A stretch of DNA of 64,000 nt from positions 48,174,001 through 48,238,000 of the forward strand of contig NC_043005.1 of assembly GCF_006345805.1 (NCBI RefSeq). The letters are read 5' to 3'. This document shows, piece after piece, positions 784-59,905 of this stretch (position 1 is the first letter of the stretch; the number at the start of each line of letters is the position of its first letter). Source of the stretch: Octopus sinensis. Its lineage: Eukaryota. Below the pieces are notes generated by a model. The model did not search any database. It was not told the origin of the DNA and worked only from the letters and a program-made list of their open reading frames with translations. The position numbers and the translations under genes are program-made.

Positions 784-813
784 TATATATATAAAAAGCA
801 GACCAGCCACGGA

Positions 814-884
814 TGCCGAAACCCGGGATTGAACCAGGGACCTTTAGATCTTCAGTCTAACGCTCTCCCAACTGAGCTATTTCC

Positions 885-886
<2 letters not shown>
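814..886 (-). tRNA. tRNA-Phe(GAA) pseudogene, first 3 nt replaced
   Basis: Minus strand reads atgGAAATAGCTCAGTTGGGAGAGCGTTAGACTGAAGATCTAAAGGTCCCTGGTTCAATCCCGGGTTTCGGCA; the canonical 5' GCC is missing. A T5 run lies downstream at 793-797. Confidence 0.9.
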
Positions 887-927
<41 letters not shown>

Positions 928-5042: not shown

Positions 5043-5639
5043 TAGATTAACAGTAGATTCATAAACTACATTATTACGTTTTCATTAATTATTGGGTTAA
5101 CAATTTTCTTTCACTCTACAATTACGCTTTTTATCAGGTCTTAGCAAAGAATTCCTAGCGACAGGTAGAAAATTACTGGCAATGATATTAGAAGAAATTT
5201 CATAATTACAATCCTTGTGAAGGCAGCGAGATGGCAGAGTCCTAGGCACGCTAGACGAAATGCTTAGAGGTATTTCGTCCGTTGTTACGTTCTGAATTCA
5301 AATTCCGCCGAAGTCGACTTTGCCTTTCATCCTTTTGGGGTCGAAACACTGGAGCCGATGTAATCGACTAGTCCCCACCAACTCCAAATTTTAGGCCTTG
5401 TGCCTTTAGTAGTAAGGATTATTACCATCCTCTTTTTCACCCTCCCTAATTTACAACCAATACAAGAATCATACATACTGCCCTTATCATTTTGATAGTT
5501 TTAGTGCTATTATCAATATTGTTAATATTATCATTAGTACAACTATTAATACAATCTTTATCATTAGCATTATTGTTGGTGTTATTATTGCTATTGTTTA
5601 TGGCATTATTATTATTATTATTATTAGTTTTATTATTAA

Positions 5640-6043
5640 AGCGACGAGTTGGCAGAATCGTTATCCTGCCAGGCGGGCGAAATGCTTAGCGGTATTTCGT
5701 CTGCCGTTACGTTCTGAGTTCAAATTCCACCGAGGTCGACTTTGCCTTTCATCCTTTCGGGGTCGATAAATTAAGTACCAGTTACGCACTGGGGTCGATG
5801 TAATCGACTTAATCCATTTGTCTGTCCTTGTTTGTCCCCTCTATGTTTAGCCCATTGTGGGTAATAAAGAAACAGGTATTTTCTGCCTTTATGTTCTGAG
5901 TTCAAATTCCGCCGAGGTCGACTTTGCCTTTCATCCTTCCGGAGTAGATAAAATTAGTGCCAGTTACACACCGGGGTCGATGTAGTCGACTTAATCCCTT
6001 CCCCCAAATTTGAGGCCTTGTGCTTCTAGTAGAAAAGATTATT
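5640..6043 (+). mobile_element. Nested SINE A dimer
   Basis: The first unit ends aataaagaaac, then ggtattttctgcc resumes a second SINE body that has the alternative tail ggccttgtgc...agtagaaaagattatt. Confidence 0.85.
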
Positions 6044-11111: not shown

Positions 11112-11515
<404 letters not shown>

Positions 11516-11814: not shown

Positions 11815-12327
11815 AATATTCTTTTCTACTTTAGGCACAAGGCCAGAAATTTTGGGGGAGGGAGCCAGTCGATTAGATCGACCCCAGTATGCAACTGGTA
11901 CTTAATTTATCAACCCCGAAAGGATGAAAGACAAATTCAACCTCGGTGGAATTTGAATTCAAAATGTAAAGACAGACGAAATTAATATTCTTTTCTACTC
12001 TAGGCACAAGGCCTGAAATTTTTTGTGGGGAAGAGGCCAGTCGATTAGATCGACCCCAGTATGCAACTGGTACTTAATTTATCAACCCCGAAAGGATGAA
12101 AGACAAATTCAACCTCGGTGGAATTTGAACTCAAAATGTAAAGACAGACGAAATTAATATTCTTTTCTACTCTAGGCACAAGGCCTGAAATTTTTTGTGG
12201 GGAAGAGGCCAGTCGATTAGATCGACCCCAGTACACAACTGGTACTTAATTTATCAACCACAAAAGGATGAAAGGCAAAGTCAACCTGGGCAGAATTTGA
12301 ACTCAGAACGTAAATACAGATGAAATC
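11815..12327 (-). repeat. Head-less SINE A trimer (~174-bp units)
   Basis: Three near-identical units, each starting at atttcRtctg on the minus strand; flanked by aatattaaaatatt on both sides. Confidence 0.88.
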
Positions 12328-13089
12328 AATATTAAAATATTAAAACAGCAGTACATCATCAGAAAATATTTAGATAGTAATTTAGTTACGAAATGGATAA
12401 ACAGAAAGGCAAAAAGTAAAATTTGAAAGGTTTAATGGCAACTATGAAATTAATGCAGTTGAAGTGTCTCTGGAATGGGTCAACTCGAGGAATTCATTCT
12501 AGTTGTAGCATAACACCAGTTGGAACTAAATGGTAGCAGTGAGAGAAGTAGCATTAATTGAATTAAAATTACTTGAAGGTATCATTATCCAGTGTAGCAG
12601 TAGGAATAGTAAGATGCTGAGTTTAGCAATAGAAATAGTAGAATTGAAAAAGCAAAAACAATTTTGCACCATTAGTAGAGATAATTACTATAGTAGTATT
12701 AATAATGATGATGATGGTGGTGGTGGTGGTGGGGCAGTAGCAGTGGTGGTGGTGGTGGTGGTGGTGGTGGTCTGAGGCATAGCTGCAGAAACTGCAAGTT
12801 ATCTAGCAATTATTCAGTGAAATGAAATAATTTTAGATAACATCCCTTATGGAGAGCTCATTCTTCTTTGAATGATAAGAAAAGTGCATAATTATATTCT
12901 TCATATATTGAAGTTCGTACATTGTTATAAACGCATTTCACTAATATATGTATTTACATATTTTTGTATGTGTGTGTGTGTGGTGTGTGTGTGTGTGTGC
13001 ATATGTGTGCACACATGTGAGCACACACGTGTGTATGTTTGCACATGTATGTAGACACATATGCAAACATAAACAAGTGCTCACACACA

Positions 13090-32784: not shown

Positions 32785-33138
32785 TATTTCTTTATTAACC
32801 TATAAAGGTTTTACATAGTGGGGACATTACAAGGACAGACAAGGGACATTCAGGGTACAAACTCGCTTCTTACATACAGTGTGAAAAACCGGATGGATTT
32901 ACATATATTTTGAATGAGGGTTAAAAATATACATATAAACGATGATCGGATGAGTTTTGGGTCCGAGTTAGTGAGTTAACTCGCCGGTTGGTTATCCTTT
33001 TTGGTAATCTTTTTCCTTCCTTTTATGCTCCGACCGACCGTGCAAGCACAGCCTCGTGCATTCTCATCTTTCTTACCACTGTCGTCCATCTTTTTCCAAA
33101 CGCTCTTTGTGGCAGGCTCCTCCTCTCCAGGCGGATCT
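32785..33138 (-). mobile_element. 5'-truncated Tx1-family LINE (different subfamily)
   Basis: IRLERRSLPQRAFGKRWTTVVRKM aligns with the ORF2 end LWLEKRCLSECTFQKRWKYVARVL; ends aataaagaaat; imperfect TSD agaga(g/ga)..cagaagaga. Confidence 0.8.
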
Positions 33139-37683: not shown

Positions 37684-39255
37684 GCTGTATCGTTCAAAAT
37701 AATCGAAGAAATTCCATCCTTTTTAAAATTAAATGTATTGAATAGTTTTCACATATTTCAATATTTAGATTTCTAAGTTGATCACAAATTCTATTTAAAA
37801 ATGTAACTCATTGTCTAAGAACTGCTCTGTACAATACGTTCTTCATATTTTCTCTATTAAGAAAAGTTCTTAAGTTTTCTCACAACAAAGATAAGTCCAT
37901 TGTATTCCAATTTCTAATATAAATCGCTAAATCCTATCACTAAATAAAGGTAACATAGTGTCCGTATGACAAAGAGAAGTCCTTCACTATTGTTAGTCGA
38001 ATAATATGGGTTCTCTCGTTGCGTTACTTTTACTAAGATTGCTTGTAGTCTCACTTTACAAGTTGAAGACGTGAATGAGCTTTGTTTTAAACTTAAATAA
38101 TATCCTCTCCATCACATCACTGGCTAGTATCTTCACGTGGATCGCAACAAATGTCATTTCATTTCCTTCATTTCTGTTTAACAAATATTTTATAAACAAA
38201 GGATAACGAAAGAATTTATTTCGGAAACTTAGAAGTGTCCATAATTCTAGATTCATTTTCATTAAAAATAAATATAGATTTCATGTACTTTGCGAAACTC
38301 GAATCTATGATGTATATGTTGAACAATTTTAAATTGTTAGCAAATAATGGTTTTCTTTTATTACAATTCCATTCACATCTACAACGCAAGATAGGAATAT
38401 AAATCAATGTAAATTCTTGACCAGTGCTTTATTTCAATGACCCTAGAAAGATAAATAGTTAAGCTGATATCAATAGGATTTGAACCCAGAACGTAGAAAT
38501 CAGTTAGTAAATATTGATTTCAAATTTTGGCACAAGACCAGCAAATTCGGGGGAGAGAGCTAGTCGATTATATCAACCCCAGTACTTAGACTGGTACTTA
38601 TTTTATCGATTCCGAAATGCAAAGTGGAATTTGAACTCAGAACAAGTAAAGACGGAAGAAATTCTTAGACAAGAGGCACAGAATTTGACGTCAGGAAGAA
38701 TCCTCTATTCTAAATTCCCAAAAGTAATATTCCTAAACATGGTTGAGTCTAGCACTCCGGACAAAATCCTTAGCAGTGTTTCATCCGTCTTTACGTTCTG
38801 GGTTCAAATGCCACCGAGGTCGAATTTACCTCTCAGCCCTTGGGAAGTCGATGAAATAAGAAGCAGTTGAGCACTGGAGTCAATGTAACCGACTTATTCT
38901 TTTCTTCGAAACTACTGGCCTTGTGCCAAAATTTGAAACTAGTATATAGTAACTGCGAAGGCGGCGAGCCGGAGGAATCGTTCGCACACCCGACAACATG
39001 CTTGTCGGCATTTCGTCTGTCTTTACCCATTCTGAGTTCAAATTCCACCGAGGTCGACTTTGCCTTTCATCCTTTCGGGGGTTGATAAAATAAGTACAAG
39101 TTGAGCACTGGTATCAATGTAATCGACTTAACCTCTCCCCCGAAACTGCTGGCCTTGTGCCAAAATTTGAAATTGATATAGGGTTGAGTCACCTGAGAAG
39201 AGAATTTATAGGGAAATAGTTGCGTCTACAAACCACAAAACAAACATATATTTAT

Positions 39256-39674
39256 TTCTTTATTGCCCACAAGGGGCTAAACATAGAGAGGACAAACAAG
39301 GACAGACAAAGGGATTGAGTCGATAACACTGACCCCAGTGCATAACTGGTACTTATTTGATCGACCCCGAAAGGATGAAAGGCAAAGTCGAACTCGGCAG
39401 AATTTGAACTCAGAACGTAACGGCAGACGAAATACCTATTTCTATTTCTTTACTACCCACAAGGGGCTAAACACAGAGAGGACGAACAAGGTCAGACAAA
39501 CGGATCAAGTCGATTATATCAACCCCAGTACGTAACTGGTACTTATTTAATCGACCCCAAAAGGATGAAAGGCAAAGTCGACCTCGGCGGAATTCGAACT
39601 CAGAACGTAACGGCAGACGAAATACGGCTACGCATTTCGCCCGGCGTGCTAACGTTTCTGCCTGCTCGCCGCCC
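39256..39674 (-). mobile_element. Nested SINE A dimer, both units with Tx1-type tails
   Basis: Junction gtaaagaaatagaaat|aggtatttcgtctgccgttac; outer TSD aaaacaaacatatatt. Confidence 0.9.
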
Positions 39675-46739: not shown

Positions 46740-49700
46740 GTAAACAAAATAGTAATAGAATGCTGGCTGAGAAGTGAGCCAAATAAAAGAGGCTTCATGA
46801 ATCAAAAGAAGAGAATATGGGATGAAAAAGTAGGTTTTGAAACATCCGCCCAGCGACTGATAGACCAAGCAAGAACAATCTGTAGAAACGACAGGATTAC
46901 GGAATAGAGATTGAAGAAATTCAGAGAAACATAGAAAAAAAAAAAGAGAGCAGAAGGAGAGTGAAACAGCAGTAGCAGAAAGTAGTAGTGAAGGGGTAAG
47001 AGATGTAGAACATGAAACATGGAAATCGCAGGGTACCAGAGAATACTGATAAAGTAACTAATGAAAACGATCTAGATCGACAAGTGACAGTAAGTACTGC
47101 ACAAGACTTGAATGATGAAGAGGAGATTTTAGAAATGTTGTGAGTTAAAATGTTTGATGGGAACAAGGAAGTACCACCAAATGTAAGGTATATATGAACA
47201 GGAAAAATTGAGGAGAGCCACAGGCAAAGTAAATGACGTTTTATACTTGATTAAAACAGAAAACATCAGTGCAACAAACCAGCTAATCATAGCTGCTGCT
47301 AATGTCCTAGATAACATAATCTACAAACGAAAAACTGAAGATATAAAAGCAAATGAAAGGAAAGAACCAAACTGGAGTAAGAGAATACGAATGAAGCTGG
47401 AAAAGATACGGAAAGAACTGAGACAATTGAATAAGATAATGAGAGGAGAGCTCAAGAATTAGTAATCAGAAAATTGAATGGATAGTGCAAGTTAGAAGAG
47501 AGGGGAAAGCAAACAAACAAACAGTACATGAAGAACTGACACAAAAGGTGACCGCATTAAAGGCCAAACTGAAGAGATATAATGCTAGTTGCAACGGTTT
47601 CGAGCAGAACAGACTCAGAATAGACTGTTCCAGTCAAAAAGAAGGCGTTTTTTTTTGTTTTTGTTTTTTTGTTTGTGCTTTTTTTTTTTAAAGAAATAGA
47701 GGGAAGCCAAGACCAGGAACTGATTCCAGATACGGAAGAAAGTAAAGAATTTTGGAGAAGGCTGTAGAACAGGCCGGCGAGACATAAAGAAAACGCGGAG
47801 TGGCTAACAAAGACGGGAAGACAACTTACAACTGTACCAAGTTAAAAGGACGTCAAAATTAATTAATATACAGAGACAGAAGTTTTTAAAAAAATACCAA
47901 AATTGGAAAGGACTAGGCCCGGATGGAATAGAAGGCCATTGGCTGAAGAACTTTACACAGTTGTATGAAAGGATTGCTGCACAATTGGATGACTGCCTGC
48001 AGCAAGGTCACGTTCCTGCCTGGATGACAAGGGGACGACGCTGCTATGCCTCAAGCATCCCTTGAAAGGGAACTTAGCATCAAATTTTCGACCTGTTTAC
48101 CACTTATGAGGAAGCTTATGACCGGTGTATTGGCGGAAGAGTTATACAACCATATGGAAAATAACAATCTACTTCCAGAAGAACAGAAAGGATGCAGGAA
48201 ACAAAGTAAGGTAACAAAAGATTACTTATTAGTTGATAAAATAATCATTAGAAATTGGAGACGAAGATTGACGGGGATGAATGTAGCATGGTGAGATTAC
48301 AAAAAAAGCATATAATATGGTACCACACAGTTGGATAAGTAAAACAATGAGCATGTTTGGAATAGCAAAAAGCATTGAGAAAATTCTTAATGAAAGTATG
48401 AAACATTGGAATACTGAATTAATCGGATCGGAGGAAAGCAAAAACTCGGGAAAGTGAACATCAGACGTGGAATATTCCAAGGTGATAGCTTATCTCCATT
48501 ACTATTCGTATTGGCCATAACACCGCTCACTGTGATACTGCGAAACTTTAAAATTGCCTACGATTTGAGAAAAGGAAATGGTCAGATAGATCATTTCCTT
48601 TCCATGGATGATATAAAGGTTTATGCGAAAAATGAGAAACAGCTTGAAAATTTTGTACATACTATCTGCATTTTCTCAAATGACATATGTATGGAATTTG
48701 AGATATAAAAGTGCGCTATATTGAAAATGAAACGAGGAAGATTTGGAAGAAGCCGAGGAATTGAAATGCCAAATGGGCAAACAGTGAGAACGGTTGAGAA
48801 AGGACAATGGTATTAGTACTTGAGAATACTGGAATCTGTCGAAATAAAAAATGAAAAAATGAAACAAATTACTAGTAGGGAGTACACAAGGAGAGTAAGA
48901 AAATTATTGCAGTCAAAGCTGAATTCAAAAGATCTTAGTGAAGTAATATATTCAAGAGCAATACTCTTAATCAGATATCGAATTGAAATTACAGACTGTA
49001 CCAAAAACGATATAAAGAAACTTAACAGAAAAACTAGAAAGTTGTTGACAATGCATGGAGTCCACCATCCGAAAGCTGATATCAACCGGCTGTACTTGAG
49101 GAGAGACTTGGATAGAAGAGGCTTAATAGCAGTAGAAGAATATGTAAAGATAGAAAGTAAACATCTAATAGAGTATTTACGGAGCAGCGCAGAAAAACGA
49201 CTAAAGACAGTGAATAAAGAACAGGTGATGAAGCGCGTAATAGGAGAAAAGGACAAGAATGAAATACAAAGAGAGCACGTCAGACAGATTGAAGAGAATC
49301 CCCTGCATGGCCACTTTTGGAAAGCCATTGAAGACGTATGTGAGACAAAATCCTGGGCTTGGTTAAAAAAAGAGTAATTAAAAGAAAGAAACCAAGAGCC
49401 TAATTGTAGCAGTCTAAGATCAAGCGATAAAAACTAACAACTTGAGAAAAAATATATGTAGAAATAATGTGTCAGAAAAATGTAGAGCCTGTGGAATTTG
49501 GAACGAGACAGTGGCATGCATTGTGGAAGAATGCTCCAAGTTGGCACAGGAAGAATATAAGAAATGGATGACCGACCAGGTTGTAAAAGTTTTATACTGG
49601 AAACTGTGCCAGAAATGGGGATTTGAAGGTGGAATCATATGGGACAATCATCGTGACAAAAGAGAACCGAAGTTGGAGAAATGCAAGATTTTGTAAGACT

Positions 49701-50148
49701 TTCCAGTTCCAACGGACAAGAAGTTAGACAATAAGAGACCAGACATAACAGTTATAGATGAGGTAAAGCGAAGTTGCTTACTTATAGACCTGTCATTCCC
49801 GTTTGACGCTAGGATCGTAAAGAAAGAGGAAGAAAAACAAAACAAATACAGTCCTTTAACATTTGAAATAGAAGGAATTTGGTACATGAAAACAGTGAAG
49901 GTCGTACCTATAATAATTGGTGCGTTGAGAACAGTAAGCAAAAATATAGACAGATGGTTGAAGGAGATTGGAATAGATTGCCCAGTAGAGCTCCTAGGGA
50001 CAGCAAGAGTTATCAGGAGGGTTCTAAGCATTTGAAAGACTGCTGAAAACTTGTGGATACCAAAAGTTACAGGTTGTAACCCGTTACCCACATAAATCCT
50101 ACCAGGAATGAGACCGAACCTGAATGAAACCAAAATAATAATAATAAT
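46740..50148 (+). mobile_element. Decayed, near full-length R4/Dong-clade LINE (RT plus restriction-like endonuclease)
   Basis: Broken frames with LPEEQKGC, RRGIFQGDSLSPLLF, MDDIK, HPKADINRLY, CRACG...C zinc finger and DNKRPDI; many stops and frameshifts; ends in (AAT)n. Confidence 0.9.
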
Positions 50149-50739
50149 CCTCTTAACTATAGGCACAAAGCCCGAAATTTTGGGGGAGGGAACCAATCGA
50201 TTACATCGACCCCAGTACTCAACCTGTTCTTATTTTATCGACCCCGAAAGGATGAAAGGTAAGTCGACTCCGATGGAATTTGAACTCAAGATGTAAAGAC
50301 GGACGAAATGCCGATTTCTTTACTACCCACAAGGGGCTAAGCAGAGGAGACAAACAAGAATAGACAGACGGATTAAGTCGATTATATCGACCCCAGAGCG
50401 TAACTGGTACTTAATTTATCGACTCCGAAAGGATGAAAGGCAAAGTCGACCTCGGCGGAATTTGAACTCAGAACGTAACGGCAGACGAAATACGAATTTC
50501 TTTATTGCCCACCGGGGGCCAAACATAGATATGGACAGTACAACTGATGGGATCAGTGAATCGATATGATTTTACATAAATGTGACATCAAAAATAAAAT
50601 ACAATACATAAAAATCGAATGGAATACACAGTACAAAAACAATACAAATGAAGCGATGATCAAGTTACGCTCCGATCCCACAAGCCCCGATCTACCGCTG
50701 ATACCTTTTTATTTTTCCTTTTTTTTTTTCCTCGTCTAT

Positions 50740-53700
50740 TCACACGGTTCCTTGCACGCACAACACTCGTGCAACATACTTCCATCTCTTTTGGAACGTA
50801 CACTCTGACAGACACCTCTTCTCCAGCCACAGTTTCCTTTTCAAATGAAAAGAAAAAAAGGATCGTAAATTGTCACCAGAGATAAAGTTGCCTGTCTTAA
50901 TTCCTTTTATCCTAGTATTCCATACAGCCTCTTTTGCTATTGCTACAACCGTGAGAAAACAATTCTTACCTTCGTTCGTTAGAACTCCCGGTGGGTCAAT
51001 TTTTATAATTGACTCAGTCGACAGCCGTACTCTTCCTTCGCCGGACAACAGATGTTCAGCATAAGCCCACATTTCAGTTATCTCCGGACACTGAACAATA
51101 GCGTGAGGGACGGTTTCCCTGTCCCCACCGCATCTTGGACAGGTCGGCGACTGACGTTTACCATGTCTTGCGAGCTTATCCCAAACGGGCAAGGCACCTC
51201 TGTAGCATTGCCAGGTTAAGGACTTTTGGAAGTTGTCCAACGTTCTCAACCCGAATGTACGATGAAACAAGCTGTCCAGTTGAATAAATCCGAGACCTAG
51301 AGTCGACCCCAGGCCATCGTCGCATTCAGACTCTACCAACCCACTATATAAAATCCGTGTGGAACCCCCACCGCTGGCGTTGCCCGAGCGCCGGAACAGC
51401 AAGAGGGCCTTACGGCACTCTTTATGCCACTCACTCGACCTCGGTCTACGAGAACACCAGGCTTCCTGTTCGCAAAAACTCTTGAACTCAGGGAACATTT
51501 GTCTGGCCAGCGGAGACCACACCCGTTCACTATCCAGGAGAATCCAGAGGTGCCTCAACCTCAACGCATGTCTGCGCATCATTAACCAAGGCATCCCTAA
51601 ACCTCCATTTAAAGGCTTTTGACAGCAGACAGAGCGTTTCACAAGTGGCGACCTGCCCTTCCACAAAAAGCGAAAGAGCTGTCTCTCCAACCTGATCAAC
51701 CACGAATCCGGACAGGGCACGACAGTCAGGCGGTAGGTAATGACCGATGCGATAAACACATTGGCCACTTCCGCCCTCCCTTTCAGGGATAGCCACCGCC
51801 AAGACCAGGTCTTGACTACTGCAGCCACCCTGCTCAATACCTCCGTCCAGTTCTTCTCTATCTGGAGGCCTGGTCCAAACCAGACTCCCAGCAACTTAAC
51901 CGGTCCCTCCGTCCAGCGCCTAACAACACTGTCTGAAGGCATCGACTTGCCAACCCAGGTGCCGAGCTGCAAGCCGACCGACTTTTCCCGGTTAATCTTT
52001 GCTCCTGCTACCTCCTCGTAAGCCTCAATAGTCTTACCTACTTCACGTAGGCGTGCCACTGTGGTTACACTGATAGTGATATCATCCGCGAAAGCCGTAA
52101 CAAACTCCTCTAGTCCTGGTTCTCTCGGGATGCCACTCAACCTTTGCAGTAATGGCTCGAGAGCCATCACATACAAAAGTGGTGAAAGCGGACATCCTTG
52201 ACGAACCGAGCGTCTGATGCAGAACGGCTTCGAAAGGAAACCGTTCACCCGAACTATCGAGTCAATGTTGTGGTACAAAGCGATAAACCACCTGAGGAAG
52301 CCAAGGCCCAGGCCAAACCGCGCAAGTACAGTCGCTAGGTATCGATGGTCAACCCTATCAAAAGCTTTAGACTGGTCCAAATGCACCAATGCCCCACCTT
52401 TGCCAGATTTATTACCAAACCTCTCTATGGTATAGCGAATAAGATGGAGGGTATCCTGAATGGTTCTGCCTGGGATGGCACATGTCTGTGCCTCCCCGAC
52501 TATACCATTCGCGACACGCGCCAACCTTTTTGCTAGAACCTTGGCCAAAATCTTCACTTCTGCGTTTAACAGAGTGATGGGCCTGAAATTCTCTAGAACG
52601 TCCCCCTTGTCCGGGTCCTTTCTGACCAACGTCACTACTCCCCGGCGCACAGATCTGGGGATAAACCCATTCTGTTTCCAGTTCGCGTACACGTCAGTCA
52701 GTAGTTGCCCGAACAAGTCTGGCATACATTTATACAGCTCGTACGGAAGACCATCAAGTCCCGGTGACTTACCCGCTTTACAATCGGCCAAAGCCTCCAT
52801 CACCTCCTCAAGTGTGATTGGCCCTTCGCAAGACTCCGCATCCGACCCCGAGAGGCACGGCAGCCCGGTAAGAAAGTCCTCGAGGGCTCTCCCACCACCA
52901 GGACCGCCGTCACCCCCGAACAGCTGGGCGAAGTACTCCCGAAAGACCTCACACATTTTCTCGGGTTCGTTTATCAAGACACCATTTTGATTCGTCAAAG
53001 ACCGAATAGAGGAACTATTTCCTTGCCGAGCTTCCACCACTCGGGCCCATCCAGCGGCTTTGATTCCTTCACTTCCCATTGCACGTAACTTAGCTCTGGT
53101 AATACTTCCCATGTGGTGGGCTTCAAGATGCTGGTTTAACTCCAGTCTTTTCACCCTCGCTTGGTCTGTATTACCAGTCCTCCAGGCTTCTTCTAGTTCC
53201 TTAACTAGACCATATCCTATTTTACGTCCCTTCTTAGCTAAACTTATGCTAAACCTAATAGACTCATATTTGATGGCTCTTTTTAGGGCGTACCACCATT
53301 TGTTATTAATGATGGTACCTGTTAATGCCCTCTGTATTAACATCTTGATCCGCTTTCTGTACTCCTCAATCGCCAAAAGGGACGTATTGAGTTTCCAGTA
53401 GCCAGATCCCTGTCTATGCAACTTATCTACCGTCAGTTTACAGGTAACCATCTTGTGGTCACTGTAGCTGACTAGAAAAAACTGTGGACACTCAACTATG
53501 GACTTATCTTTTTCTCTAATTAAAATCCTATCTAGATATGTTCTGGTAGACCCGTCACTATTTGACCACGTCCACTGTGGAGTGTTCGGGTGCTCCAACC
53601 TATATGGATCTGCTAGCTGAAATTGACTTAGCAGATCCCGAAAGCCTGTGTTACATTTTCTGTTCATGTTCGAGTTTGAGCCAACACAATCTGTGTGTGC

Positions 53701-54240
53701 TGCACATATTGTATTAGAGTCTCCTAACACTACTAGTGAATGCGACGTGGCTAGGAACTTTCCTAGGCCACGAAAATATTCAGTTTGCGGGCCAATAATG
53801 TTTGGTGCATAAATAGCGACCAGCCTGATTGTCTTGCCACAACTGAATGTCAAGTCGAGAACGACCAGCCTGCCTTCTGGGTCAGAAAAAACCAACTTTT
53901 TCTCGGCTACCCGGTTTCTTTTTAGTAGGACCAACACCCCACCCCCACCTCCCGCCCGACTCGGAGAAACGTATTTCTCGTAGCCGTTCAGGAGGGGGAG
54001 CAGATCTCTTGGCCCCTTCACCCGGGTTTCCGTTGCAACAATTACATCCAAATTTCTCGACCTGATGTCATTCAGAAAGCGTCCTTGCTTCCAGCTTGAC
54101 AACAGGCCATGAACATTTAAACAACCAATGTGAATACCATCACTTACCTGTTTAATTAGGATTGTCCGGTGGAGGGGGACCCTCCACCTTTTTTTTATCC
54201 AGGGTCGGAGGTGGACGGTCTTGGGAAATAGATTTGTCAA
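50740..54240 (-). CDS. LINE ORF2: APE endonuclease, reverse transcriptase, C-terminal zinc finger
   Basis: LNVHGL, ATET, GDSN, LDRI, SDH (APE); PGLDG, FRPITLLN, KAFDRV, QGCPLSP, FADD (RT); CPRC...H...C. The start codon is uncertain. Confidence 0.95.
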   Translation of the reverse strand: MTNLFPKTVHLRPWIKKRWRVPLHRTILIKQVSDGIHIGCLNVHGLLSSWKQGRFLNDIRSRNLDVIVATETRVKGPRDLLPLLNGYEKYVSPSRAGGGGGVLVLLKRNRVAEKKLVFSDPEGRLVVLDLTFSCGKTIRLVAIYAPNIIGPQTEYFRGLGKFLATSHSLVVLGDSNTICAAHTDCVGSNSNMNRKCNTGFRDLLSQFQLADPYRLEHPNTPQWTWSNSDGSTRTYLDRILIREKDKSIVECPQFFLVSYSDHKMVTCKLTVDKLHRQGSGYWKLNTSLLAIEEYRKRIKMLIQRALTGTIINNKWWYALKRAIKYESIRFSISLAKKGRKIGYGLVKELEEAWRTGNTDQARVKRLELNQHLEAHHMGSITRAKLRAMGSEGIKAAGWARVVEARQGNSSSIRSLTNQNGVLINEPEKMCEVFREYFAQLFGGDGGPGGGRALEDFLTGLPCLSGSDAESCEGPITLEEVMEALADCKAGKSPGLDGLPYELYKCMPDLFGQLLTDVYANWKQNGFIPRSVRRGVVTLVRKDPDKGDVLENFRPITLLNAEVKILAKVLAKRLARVANGIVGEAQTCAIPGRTIQDTLHLIRYTIERFGNKSGKGGALVHLDQSKAFDRVDHRYLATVLARFGLGLGFLRWFIALYHNIDSIVRVNGFLSKPFCIRRSVRQGCPLSPLLYVMALEPLLQRLSGIPREPGLEEFVTAFADDITISVTTVARLREVGKTIEAYEEVAGAKINREKSVGLQLGTWVGKSMPSDSVVRRWTEGPVKLLGVWFGPGLQIEKNWTEVLSRVAAVVKTWSWRWLSLKGRAEVANVFIASVITYRLTVVPCPDSWLIRLERQLFRFLWKGRSPLVKRSVCCQKPLNGGLGMPWLMMRRHALRLRHLWILLDSERVWSPLARQMFPEFKSFCEQEAWCSRRPRSSEWHKECRKALLLFRRSGNASGGGSTRILYSGLVESECDDGLGSTLGLGFIQLDSLFHRTFGLRTLDNFQKSLTWQCYRGALPVWDKLARHGKRQSPTCPRCGGDRETVPHAIVQCPEITEMWAYAEHLLSGEGRVRLSTESIIKIDPPGVLTNEGKNCFLTVVAIAKEAVWNTRIKGIKTGNFISGDNLRSFFSFHLKRKLWLEKRCLSECTFQKRWKYVARVLCVQGTV

Positions 54241-55681
54241 AATCCCGTCTCACCACCGACACAGAATTATCAGGTGGAGGGGGAATCTCCACCTTTTCCT
54301 TTTCTCGCGGGATCGGAGCTGGTAATCCATGAAATATCGACTTGTTAAAATCTAATCTCAATGAAGATACAGTCTTTCTGTACTTATTTTGTAGAATTCT
54401 ATAAGTCTTATTTGAGACTTCATATATGTCGTAATTGATAAATTCCTCTGAAAGGTTATCAATTTTTTTTACAGTCTTTATGAGTTGAATGTCTCTCATG
54501 AGCTCAGTATCTTTAGTGTATACGGCTATTATGCCTTTTTCTTCTTTTTCTCTTCTGGCAGTCTTTTTTGGTCGTTGTTCTGTAGTAGTCGCCGCTCTCG
54601 GCTGGGTTGCTGGTTGTATTTTTCTTTTGTTTGTTGTTTTTTTCTCATCTGTTTCTTCTTTATCTTCTTCCTCTTTGTCTTTTTTCTCCTCTTCCTCCTT
54701 TTCTTCATTTTCATTGCAGTTCCTTCGAATGTGGCCTAATTGACCACATAAAAAACATCGAGGTTTTCGGCCCTCAACAAACACCACGAGGTTCTCCTCC
54801 CCTACCTCAATTGTCTCAGGAATTGTTTGAATTATTTTAGGGTCCGCTTGAATGAGAAGATTAATTGTTTGACCATCCCAGCGTGGGTTTTCCGTAGCGG
54901 TAGCCTGGAGGAGAGTAATTTTTTCTACCTCTTTGATTAGGACTGCCGCCAACAACCACATAGGTTCGACCTCTGGCGGGACCCTTGTAATTTTTATTCG
55001 CGACGTCCTCATCCCCATATAATAGGGTATTAACTCCACGTCGTTCGTTTTCAACGTTTCAACTGAGTTCTTGTGTGCTATTTCTTTATTGGTGAACCTT
55101 ACTTCCACCGTTCCGAATTTTTTTCCTCTTCTCAGAAATACTACGTCGCCCAATATTGGCTTTAAGCACTTTTCTATTTTCTCTTCTGACATTCTTTCAA
55201 TTTTTCTATTTTGTAGACAATATGTTTTGAAAATTATTGTTTTTTGCTTTTCTTCCTGTAATAACTTTTGCGGAGGTTCAATTTTCACACTGTTGTCAGT
55301 TATTTCCATCATTTTGCTGTATTTCATAATTTCGCTTTTATTCGTCGACAGTATCTGGGTTCCACCCCCAGCAGCCAACGCAAAACTTTTTTTTCCATTT
55401 TTTGGTTCTATCTGGATGCTAGGCACATCAATTATTCTCTTCGACACAATGCCTTTGTTCTCTGGCAAAGTCGGAAACTCTTCTGGTGAAAGTTCTGACG
55501 AGCTCTCAGACACATCTCCAAAAATATCAAATATATTATCCTCTCTGCTATTCCTTCTTGTAGCGGGGGAAACCCCTATTTCCTTGTCTGTAGTTGGCTC
55601 CTCGCCGGACATGTATTTCCTCCTCTCAACAGGAGAAACAAGTATTTCTGCTCCAACGGTAGGCTCCATGCTAGACGACAT
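54152..55681 (-). CDS. LINE ORF1, gag-like nucleic-acid-binding protein
   Basis: First ATG at 55681; CCHC knuckle CFLCGQLGHIRRNC; acidic/basic tract; duplicated C-terminal motif DFxKSI...KVExPPPPDN. Confidence 0.9.
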   Translation of the reverse strand: MSSSMEPTVGAEILVSPVERRKYMSGEEPTTDKEIGVSPATRRNSREDNIFDIFGDVSESSSELSPEEFPTLPENKGIVSKRIIDVPSIQIEPKNGKKSFALAAGGGTQILSTNKSEIMKYSKMMEITDNSVKIEPPQKLLQEEKQKTIIFKTYCLQNRKIERMSEEKIEKCLKPILGDVVFLRRGKKFGTVEVRFTNKEIAHKNSVETLKTNDVELIPYYMGMRTSRIKITRVPPEVEPMWLLAAVLIKEVEKITLLQATATENPRWDGQTINLLIQADPKIIQTIPETIEVGEENLVVFVEGRKPRCFLCGQLGHIRRNCNENEEKEEEEKKDKEEEDKEETDEKKTTNKRKIQPATQPRAATTTEQRPKKTARREKEEKGIIAVYTKDTELMRDIQLIKTVKKIDNLSEEFINYDIYEVSNKTYRILQNKYRKTVSSLRLDFNKSIFHGLPAPIPREKEKVEIPPPPDNSVSVVRRDFDKSISQDRPPPTLDKKKVEGPPPPDNPN

Positions 55682-56074
55682 TCTTCCCCCCAAAGGGGGA
55701 ATGAACAACGCGTGCTACCACAAGCACTAAGTGTTTTCAATTGAAAACTCCAACAGTTAAGTTATTCAACAGTTTAACAAGAAACAACAGTTGTTAACAA
55801 TATTAACACCACGAAACAGCAATTCTTATTTCACGAACACATGTGCGACAGACGAAATACGGCCACGCATTTCGCCCGGCGTGCTAACGTTTCTGCCAGA
55901 CGGACGAAATGCCGCTGAGCATTTCTCCCGGCGCAGTAACGATTCCGTCAGCTCGCCACCTTCGTCAATGTGAGTCTAGTTTGAAACCAATACCAATAAT
56001 AGAGGGAAATGGTTTCAGCGAATATCTGATATTTTGCTGACAAGACTGATGAAAATTTATTGAAATCAAACCTT

Positions 56075-57318: not shown

Positions 57319-59905
<2,587 letters not shown>

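Follow-up and report, generated by a model that had tools for sequence, protein, structure and literature searches.

The 64,000-nt stretch of Octopus sinensis DNA analysed here (the window) contains a full-length LINE that ends in the same 3' tail as an abundant SINE, and it raises the question of which LINE supplied this tail and whose reverse transcriptase carries the SINE. The initial annotation had answered that the tail was borrowed from the 3' end of this very Tx1-like LINE. Our analysis makes it quite probable that the SINE shares a hairpin tail with an L1/Tx1-type clade, likely recruiting the reverse transcriptase of that clade, and that the LINE family of the window, family A, targets one base in the head of the same SINE; the insertion of a LINE inside a SINE was a feature absent from the earlier observation on the tail.

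The family A element is a full-length LINE of the L1/Tx1 type with a length of 5,351 nt (50495..55845, minus strand), and its 5' end is common to 38 of the 40 best copies. ORF1 (54152..55714, minus strand) has 520 aa from stop to stop and a CCHC zinc knuckle (PF00098, E 2.5e-4, just above the cutoff), while ORF2 (50740..54249, minus strand) has 1169 aa from stop to stop and comprises an APE endonuclease, an RT, and a zf-RVT domain (PF03372, PF00078, and PF13966). An ORF1 together with an ORF2 carrying an N-terminal APE endonuclease, an RT, and a C-terminal zinc motif is the architecture of the L1/Tx1 group. The best PDB match of ORF2 was human L1 ORF2p (E 4e-63, residues 39-903), in comparison with E 1e-20 for R2, confined to the RT region, and no full-length CR1, RTE or L2 protein was among the matches of this comparison; ORF2 is hence nearer to L1 than to R2-type elements. 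A named homologue is a protein of Argonauta, with 63% identity, and no Tx1 label was found on homologues or cluster members of ORF2 in the homologue search, the cluster members, and the Atlas look-up. Family A is likely Tx1-like, as judged by architecture and target specificity and not by comparison with a named Tx1 sequence.

Some further features of this element and of its surroundings deserve mention. ORF2 overlaps ORF1 by 98 nt in a different frame (54152-54249, minus strand) and shows no methionine ahead of the endonuclease domain, so that a frameshift or non-AUG reinitiation is likely needed for its translation. A 98-nt duplication, 72% alike, lies at 54158-54252 and 54263-54360. Young family A copies (L031-L068) have mostly broken frames despite 98-99.8% identity, possibly due to homopolymer assembly errors. 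The insertion adjoins a decayed fragment of a different LINE (48460-50040, plus strand) that matches ORF2 by the RT motif only. Elsewhere, the window harbors a tRNA-Phe(GAA) gene (811-887, minus strand) and a tandem duplication of about 950 nt (57320-58286 and 58883-59823) with a TA-rich microsatellite between its copies.

The LINE 3' end that had been quoted initially was confirmed on the minus strand (50537-50496), and SINE tails resembling the quoted tail are present at 1142-1155, 5856-5869, 39258-39271, and other places. This tail, common to the SINE and to related LINE families, ends in AATAAAGAAAT at 50496..50537 (minus strand) without poly(A); indeed, as had been stated, poly(A) is absent after all 43 SINE tails sampled and after all LINE tails displayed. 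The 43 SINE tails were drawn from 60 fixed-coordinate 10-kb stretches (600 kb) and from the window. Against them, the last 80 nt of family A reached a score of 37.3 with a mean aligned length of 34.5 nt, far above dinucleotide shuffles of the LINE tail (13.6 +/- 1.4, maximum 17.6, n=100), and a control of 80 nt, taken from the plus-strand LINE fragment next to it, scored 12.2. A shared 3' sequence above chance, the first feature expected of a stringent pair, is therefore present.

Two truncated relatives had been said to match the SINE tail further. Both are real LINE 3' ends, 5'-truncated and on the minus strand, and the statement holds for one of them: the family B end at 32786..33138, whose flanks are not SINE, carries the ttgtctgtccttgt block and aligns over 52 nt on average, which is the longest tail match to the SINE, while the family C end at 11212..11515, inserted in a TCTA microsatellite, does not carry this block and aligns over about 41 nt. 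Neither window fragment was detected by tblastn of ORF2; they are linked via other copies, 22 of 25 for family B and nine of 25 for family C, which match the family A ORF2 with about 45-60% aa identity. In fetched genome DNA, G-type families likewise bear ORF2 and the same tail type, and a quick tree with no labelled reference joins families A, B, C, and G to two database proteins, including the Argonauta match, with an SH-aLRT of 99. E and F types show ORF1 homology and no ORF2 match within 1.7 kb before the tail. The tail is thus the end of a LINE 3' UTR, attached to ORF2 in several families. Family E (L209-L233, L044, and L048) is a 1.75-kb element with the same tail, a single 487-aa ORF1-like frame, and no ORF2 match. 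Its copies are chained in tandem, and in 19 of 25 loci, many of them from the same tandem arrays, what comes next is the AGAA motif of the SINE head, a second site.

Regarding the donor, the claim that the SINE took its tail from the window LINE itself found no support. Six of the 14 related tails outscore family A against the SINE (G2 50.3, F 49.6, C 43.7, B 42.3, E 40.1, and D 38.5), and the burst of family A postdates the SINE. In view of these better matches, we assign the tail to the Tx1-like clade, family A probably not being the donor. One SINE (L088:1495-1528) ends in the exact 34-nt family A tail without a LINE body, which could reflect a template switch, recombination or chance; it was not counted as a tail exchange, since chance could produce three substitutions somewhere in a set of tens of thousands of copies.

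Immediately 5' of AATAAA, the tail contains a predicted RNA hairpin with a 4-bp stem and a 5-nt loop (50507..50519, minus strand). Covariation in this hairpin, proposed initially as a check, was found across 14 LINE-type tails and two SINE copies, which were aligned with MAFFT and not fitted to the structure; these 16 tails were hand-picked by eye and are mutually related, and family E was excluded. Of the 64 cells of the stem, 90.6% are paired, with three of the four pairs changed on both sides, and the covariation of 0.44 compares with 0.19 in shuffles (reached by 0/500) and with at most 0.10 in slid controls. When loops of 4-6 nt are allowed, 61/64 cells pair versus 53 in the best slid control. 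The Watson-Crick count was reached by seven of 10,000 arm permutations, while the count of pairs with a double change separated at only 31/500 shuffles. The ccc-loop-ggg hairpin of the initial annotation stands as conserved base pairing but not as conserved letters, as AACC/GGTT, GTCC/GGAC, and TCCC/GGGA all occur. The conserved 3' stem-loop of a stringent pair is accordingly found by covariation. Folding energy, being no better than in shuffles (LINE z 0.64; SINE tail 13/200, with a different best fold), was discarded as support for the hairpin.

The AATAAA motif itself follows another pattern. It was retained in LINE-type tails (motif matches in 20/24 of family B, 23/27 of C, and 26/26 of E), and of the AATAAA ascribed to the SINE tail only 17 of 43 tails have kept it, 25 of 43 showing AGTAAA. 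This would fit a poly(A) signal that is needed only by Pol II elements. One could go further and regard the tail as mainly a Pol II polyadenylation element under relaxed recognition, with a LINE 3' end captured once by the SINE, any enzyme of the clade copying it without reading the stem, and SINE arrays being mostly read-through multimer RNAs or tandem duplications. We consider this unlikely: the pairing of the stem is maintained by compensatory changes, the stem is retained in the SINE, and such a reading leaves the site specificity of the LINE, described below, untouched. We rather regard it as likely, from the sequence comparisons, that the SINE recruits the reverse transcriptase of the L1/Tx1-type clade via its hairpin-plus-AATAAAGAAAT tail, and we infer that recognition of the tail is stringent. 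A 5-bp pairing is also predicted between tail and landing site in the read-through RNA of family A; families B, C, and E, however, share this tail end while their flanks are different.

The SINE has a length of about 235 nt and at least 32,016 exact tails in equal counts on both strands; it is short, non-coding, dispersed, and of high copy number, with target duplications of about 11-20 nt as read by eye. No tRNA match was found in it by ARAGORN or Rfam. Its head displays A- and B-box-like motifs, identified by eye against the consensus, and the window SINE presumably resembles known octopus SINEs. Many copies (L149-L208) carry a second, unrelated tail on the same head and core, 63 of 158 matches ending at columns 165-174.

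It is in the head of this SINE that family A resides. A 24-nt family A tail occurs 144 times exactly in the 2.72-Gb assembly, and in 129 of these occurrences the exact SINE site comes next, a six-letter site with a frequency of 4e-4 per base; of six inspected cases in which the exact site does not come next, five are still at the SINE site. SINE sequence from about column 53 lies downstream of 30/30 best copies and of 54 of 55 distinct fetched loci, and SINE head sequence lies upstream in all 39 loci for which both ends were read. Family A is thus located almost only at one base of the SINE head, for which cutting by the family A endonuclease at this base is the likely explanation. With 129/144, it also far surpasses the target preference in more than 20% of flanks that serves as a mark of the Tx1 clade in the cited part of PMC4494074. 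The site is flanked by the A- and B-box-like motifs and adjoins the loop of an inverted repeat of 15 predicted pairs in the SINE head. Older copies of the A lineage, with 87-93% identity, are also found at this site and fall into one group with family A.

Flanks as uniform as these, together with a piece of upstream target that the LINE carries, might also mean that the SINE flanks are part of the LINE or an assembly artefact, without any targeting. This is extremely improbable, and we rejected it, because the flanks are far less alike than the LINE: among 37 loci, LINE identity is 99.4%, whereas it is 90.7% in the downstream SINE bodies and 85% in the upstream heads. None of the 666 pairs of flanking bodies is identical, which means that the insertions were independent and went into older SINEs. 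Moreover, a variant of the host is mirrored on both sides of the LINE, the SINE head is still present upstream of the 5'-truncated copies L014 and L057, and the LINE/SINE junction is spanned by contigs of two other runs (X10 record 6, and X2 record 32, the latter reaching just 31 letters into the SINE).

The fine structure of the junctions in 38 loci separates host DNA from LINE DNA. The C/G variant at column 53 is the same on both sides of the LINE in 15/15 cases, while among 29 downstream variants at columns 60-68, some of them indel shifts, only one recurs upstream. The upstream variant at column 66 tracks the LINE lineage (10/11 versus 4/26; the relatedness of the copies makes the p-value an imperfect test). 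From the missing mirroring and from this tracking it follows that the 5' end of the LINE includes a short target copy of its own, by which the cDNA would be able to anneal once the target has been cut. In the window, the downstream target-site copy (50479..50494, minus strand) corresponds to SINE head columns 53-68 and is host DNA, and the upstream copy occupies 55846..55861 (minus strand), its 3' part (columns 60-68) moving with the LINE. In R2, target-homologous sequence at the 5' end of the RNA gives precise junctions, and family A, judging from its junction variants, likewise appears to use 5' target-homologous sequence. R2 differs in having a single ORF, a restriction-like endonuclease, and 28S rDNA as its target, whereas family A possesses an APE endonuclease and ORF1, with only the RT match to R2 given above.

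The window reveals a nested insertion at this site, all on the minus strand. The LINE splits an inner, Tx1-tailed, 5'-truncated SINE into its head (55846..55898) and its body with Tx1-type tail (50314..50494, columns 54-234, 92% to the reference copy). The inner SINE in turn splits an outer SINE of the other-tail subfamily into its head (55899..55960) and its body (50150..50313, left end approximate), and 55899-55914 and 50298-50313 are the two copies of an exact 16-bp target duplication. This duplication indicates that the inner SINE was inserted at the same head site of the outer SINE, so the site has received a SINE in the outer, other-tail copy and the LINE in the inner one.

Other SINE copies, too, show a SINE at this base. 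The reference SINE copy (5639-5875) is followed by a second SINE body from column 53 (5639..6000, plus strand), and at 39255..39672 (minus strand) one SINE head has two bodies joined at column 53. The head site follows 7,728 of the at least 32,016 exact SINE tails, and 12 of the 43 sampled ones; the remaining copies, about three quarters, are not at the site and have differing flanks, often starting with AGAA or AT-rich. The resulting arrays have one head and several bodies. This single-headedness agrees with the relaxed, polyadenylation-based reading, as do the better conservation of AATAAA in LINE-type tails, a long array on C1 near 30.02 Mb with a 185-nt period, and an other-tail array in the window. 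What speaks against it here is that hosts past SINE-SINE junctions often belong to the other-tail type (24 of 55 have no Tx1-type tail) and that the exact target duplication in the window spans two different SINE subfamilies. The C1 array (G000:C1:30020859-30022559) is SINE-derived and satellite-like, with at least nine SINE tail-to-site junctions at a spacing of about 185 nt. The other-tail array (11820-12340, minus strand) has three units, two of them near-identical, joined at ATTT of the same head site, and it indicates that a Tx1-type tail is not needed for arrays to form. Overall, 14 bodies were found behind a Tx1-type tail versus two behind the other tail.

The question of which LINE carried the SINE into these sites leads back to family A. 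Family A as both tail donor and current driver of the SINE would explain that the terminal 34 nt are common to both, that LINE and SINE insert at the identical base, and that a Tx1-type tail is present in 48 of 54 family A hosts versus 32 of 52 SINE sites in random DNA. It is nevertheless decidedly improbable. Besides the six related tails that score higher, the best family A copies, which are 99.4% alike, appear younger than the SINE bodies, which are 86-91% alike, to judge from these identities, although older A-lineage copies reach 87-93%; even among bodies of the self-junction class the likeness is just 91%. The SINE self-junctions comprise 47 of the G type and one of the C type whereas family A junctions are 19 to 26 (p 7e-10), a mismatch of host variant spectra which means that the present family A does not explain the SINE self-junctions, and the junction letters differ as well, with TT for the LINE and TA for the SINE. 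Family A was thus rejected as the tail donor on tail scores, ages, and host spectrum. As the host spectrum of the SINE junctions is unlike that of family A, an older relative is indicated as the carrier: older clade members, rather than the present young family, likely donated the tail and carried most SINE self-insertions, and the older A-lineage copies at the same site are likely these carriers.

We propose that ORF2p would bind the 3' stem-loop while the endonuclease would nick the SINE head between columns 52 and 53, next to the loop of the inverted repeat that is predicted to lie between A and B box. The Pol II RNA would extend beyond AATAAA into the target, any poly(A) lying downstream, and reverse transcription would begin at the border of tail and target, so that the DNA copies would end without poly(A). 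The end of the cDNA would then anneal to the target through the 5' target copy of the LINE, yielding precise full-length junctions, and SINE RNA would be processed likewise, resulting in arrays with one head and several bodies. A more far-reaching model, tentative and in our estimation falling somewhat short of probable, is a closed loop in which the family-A lineage multiplies the SINE via its tail, lands only in the SINE, and regenerates its target with each insertion, while sister Tx1-like lineages and ORF1-only passengers split the SINE head into separate sites. In this model the LINE would be breeding its own safe harbour.

In the literature, Tx1 elements have been described as targeting DNA transposons, LTR elements, snRNA genes, and microsatellites (PMC4494074, in the part cited here). 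The closest likeness is found in Tx1-Mar LINEs of crocodilians, which target Mariner, and in SINEU, which shares that target and ends in poly(A) (Kojima 2015, PMC4494074, same part): there, too, a Tx1 LINE targets a mobile element, a SINE with the same target is inferred to be mobilised, and tandem SINE insertions occur. As far as this part goes, the target of Tx1-Mar is a DNA transposon, whereas that of octopus family A is the SINE itself, and SINEU is linked to its LINE by shared target, age, and 5' heads, whereas the octopus SINE is linked by a shared 3' stem-loop tail. Tx1 of Xenopus in Tx1D, Keno in U2 snRNA, and Kibi and Koshi in microsatellites are, according to the same excerpt, further sequence-specific L1/Tx1-type LINEs, and the octopus relatives also vary in target, as family C with its TCTA repeats; among the targets listed there for these four, no SINE is included.

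Stringent pairs with a shared 3' tail and a co-varying stem-loop, as found here, are represented by maize ZmSINE2/3 with LINE1-1_ZM and Chlamydomonas SINEX-3_CR with L1-1_CR (Ohshima 2013, PMC3747384, in part). As far as Table 1 of that paper is concerned, no Tx1 partner and no mollusc is named, and pairs of the L1 clade are from plants and algae, while the partners of bivalve SINEs are CR1, CR1-Zenon, L2, and Nimb in the cited part of PMC11481361. Within the portions of these two papers covered here, no partner is reported to target its own SINE, as octopus family A likely does. For octopus, very abundant tRNA-derived SINEs (OK/OR1/OR2 and tRNA-CORE/tRNA-Deu) and recently active L1-Tx1 families are described (PMC4824008, PMC4758252, PMC8967140, and PMC13282606, each in part); the cited portions mention neither a tail partner nor a target site, and the window SINE was matched to no named family. 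The literature searched, its scope ending before Repbase/Dfam entries, subscription papers (e.g., Ohshima and Okada 1994), and supplements, contained no report of a SINE-targeting Tx1 element or of a Tx1-tailed octopus SINE.

If the proposed relationship is true, the known SINE/LINE pairs would gain a Tx1-like partner, and an animal element of the L1 group would be seen to recognise a tail stringently and without poly(A), which bears on whether the relaxed recognition of mammalian L1 is derived. Families with one tail and different targets would provide a natural series for separating the specificity of the APE endonuclease from the recognition of RNA. A LINE targeting its own passenger SINE would represent a new class of target and could help to explain the abundance of SINEs in octopus genomes.
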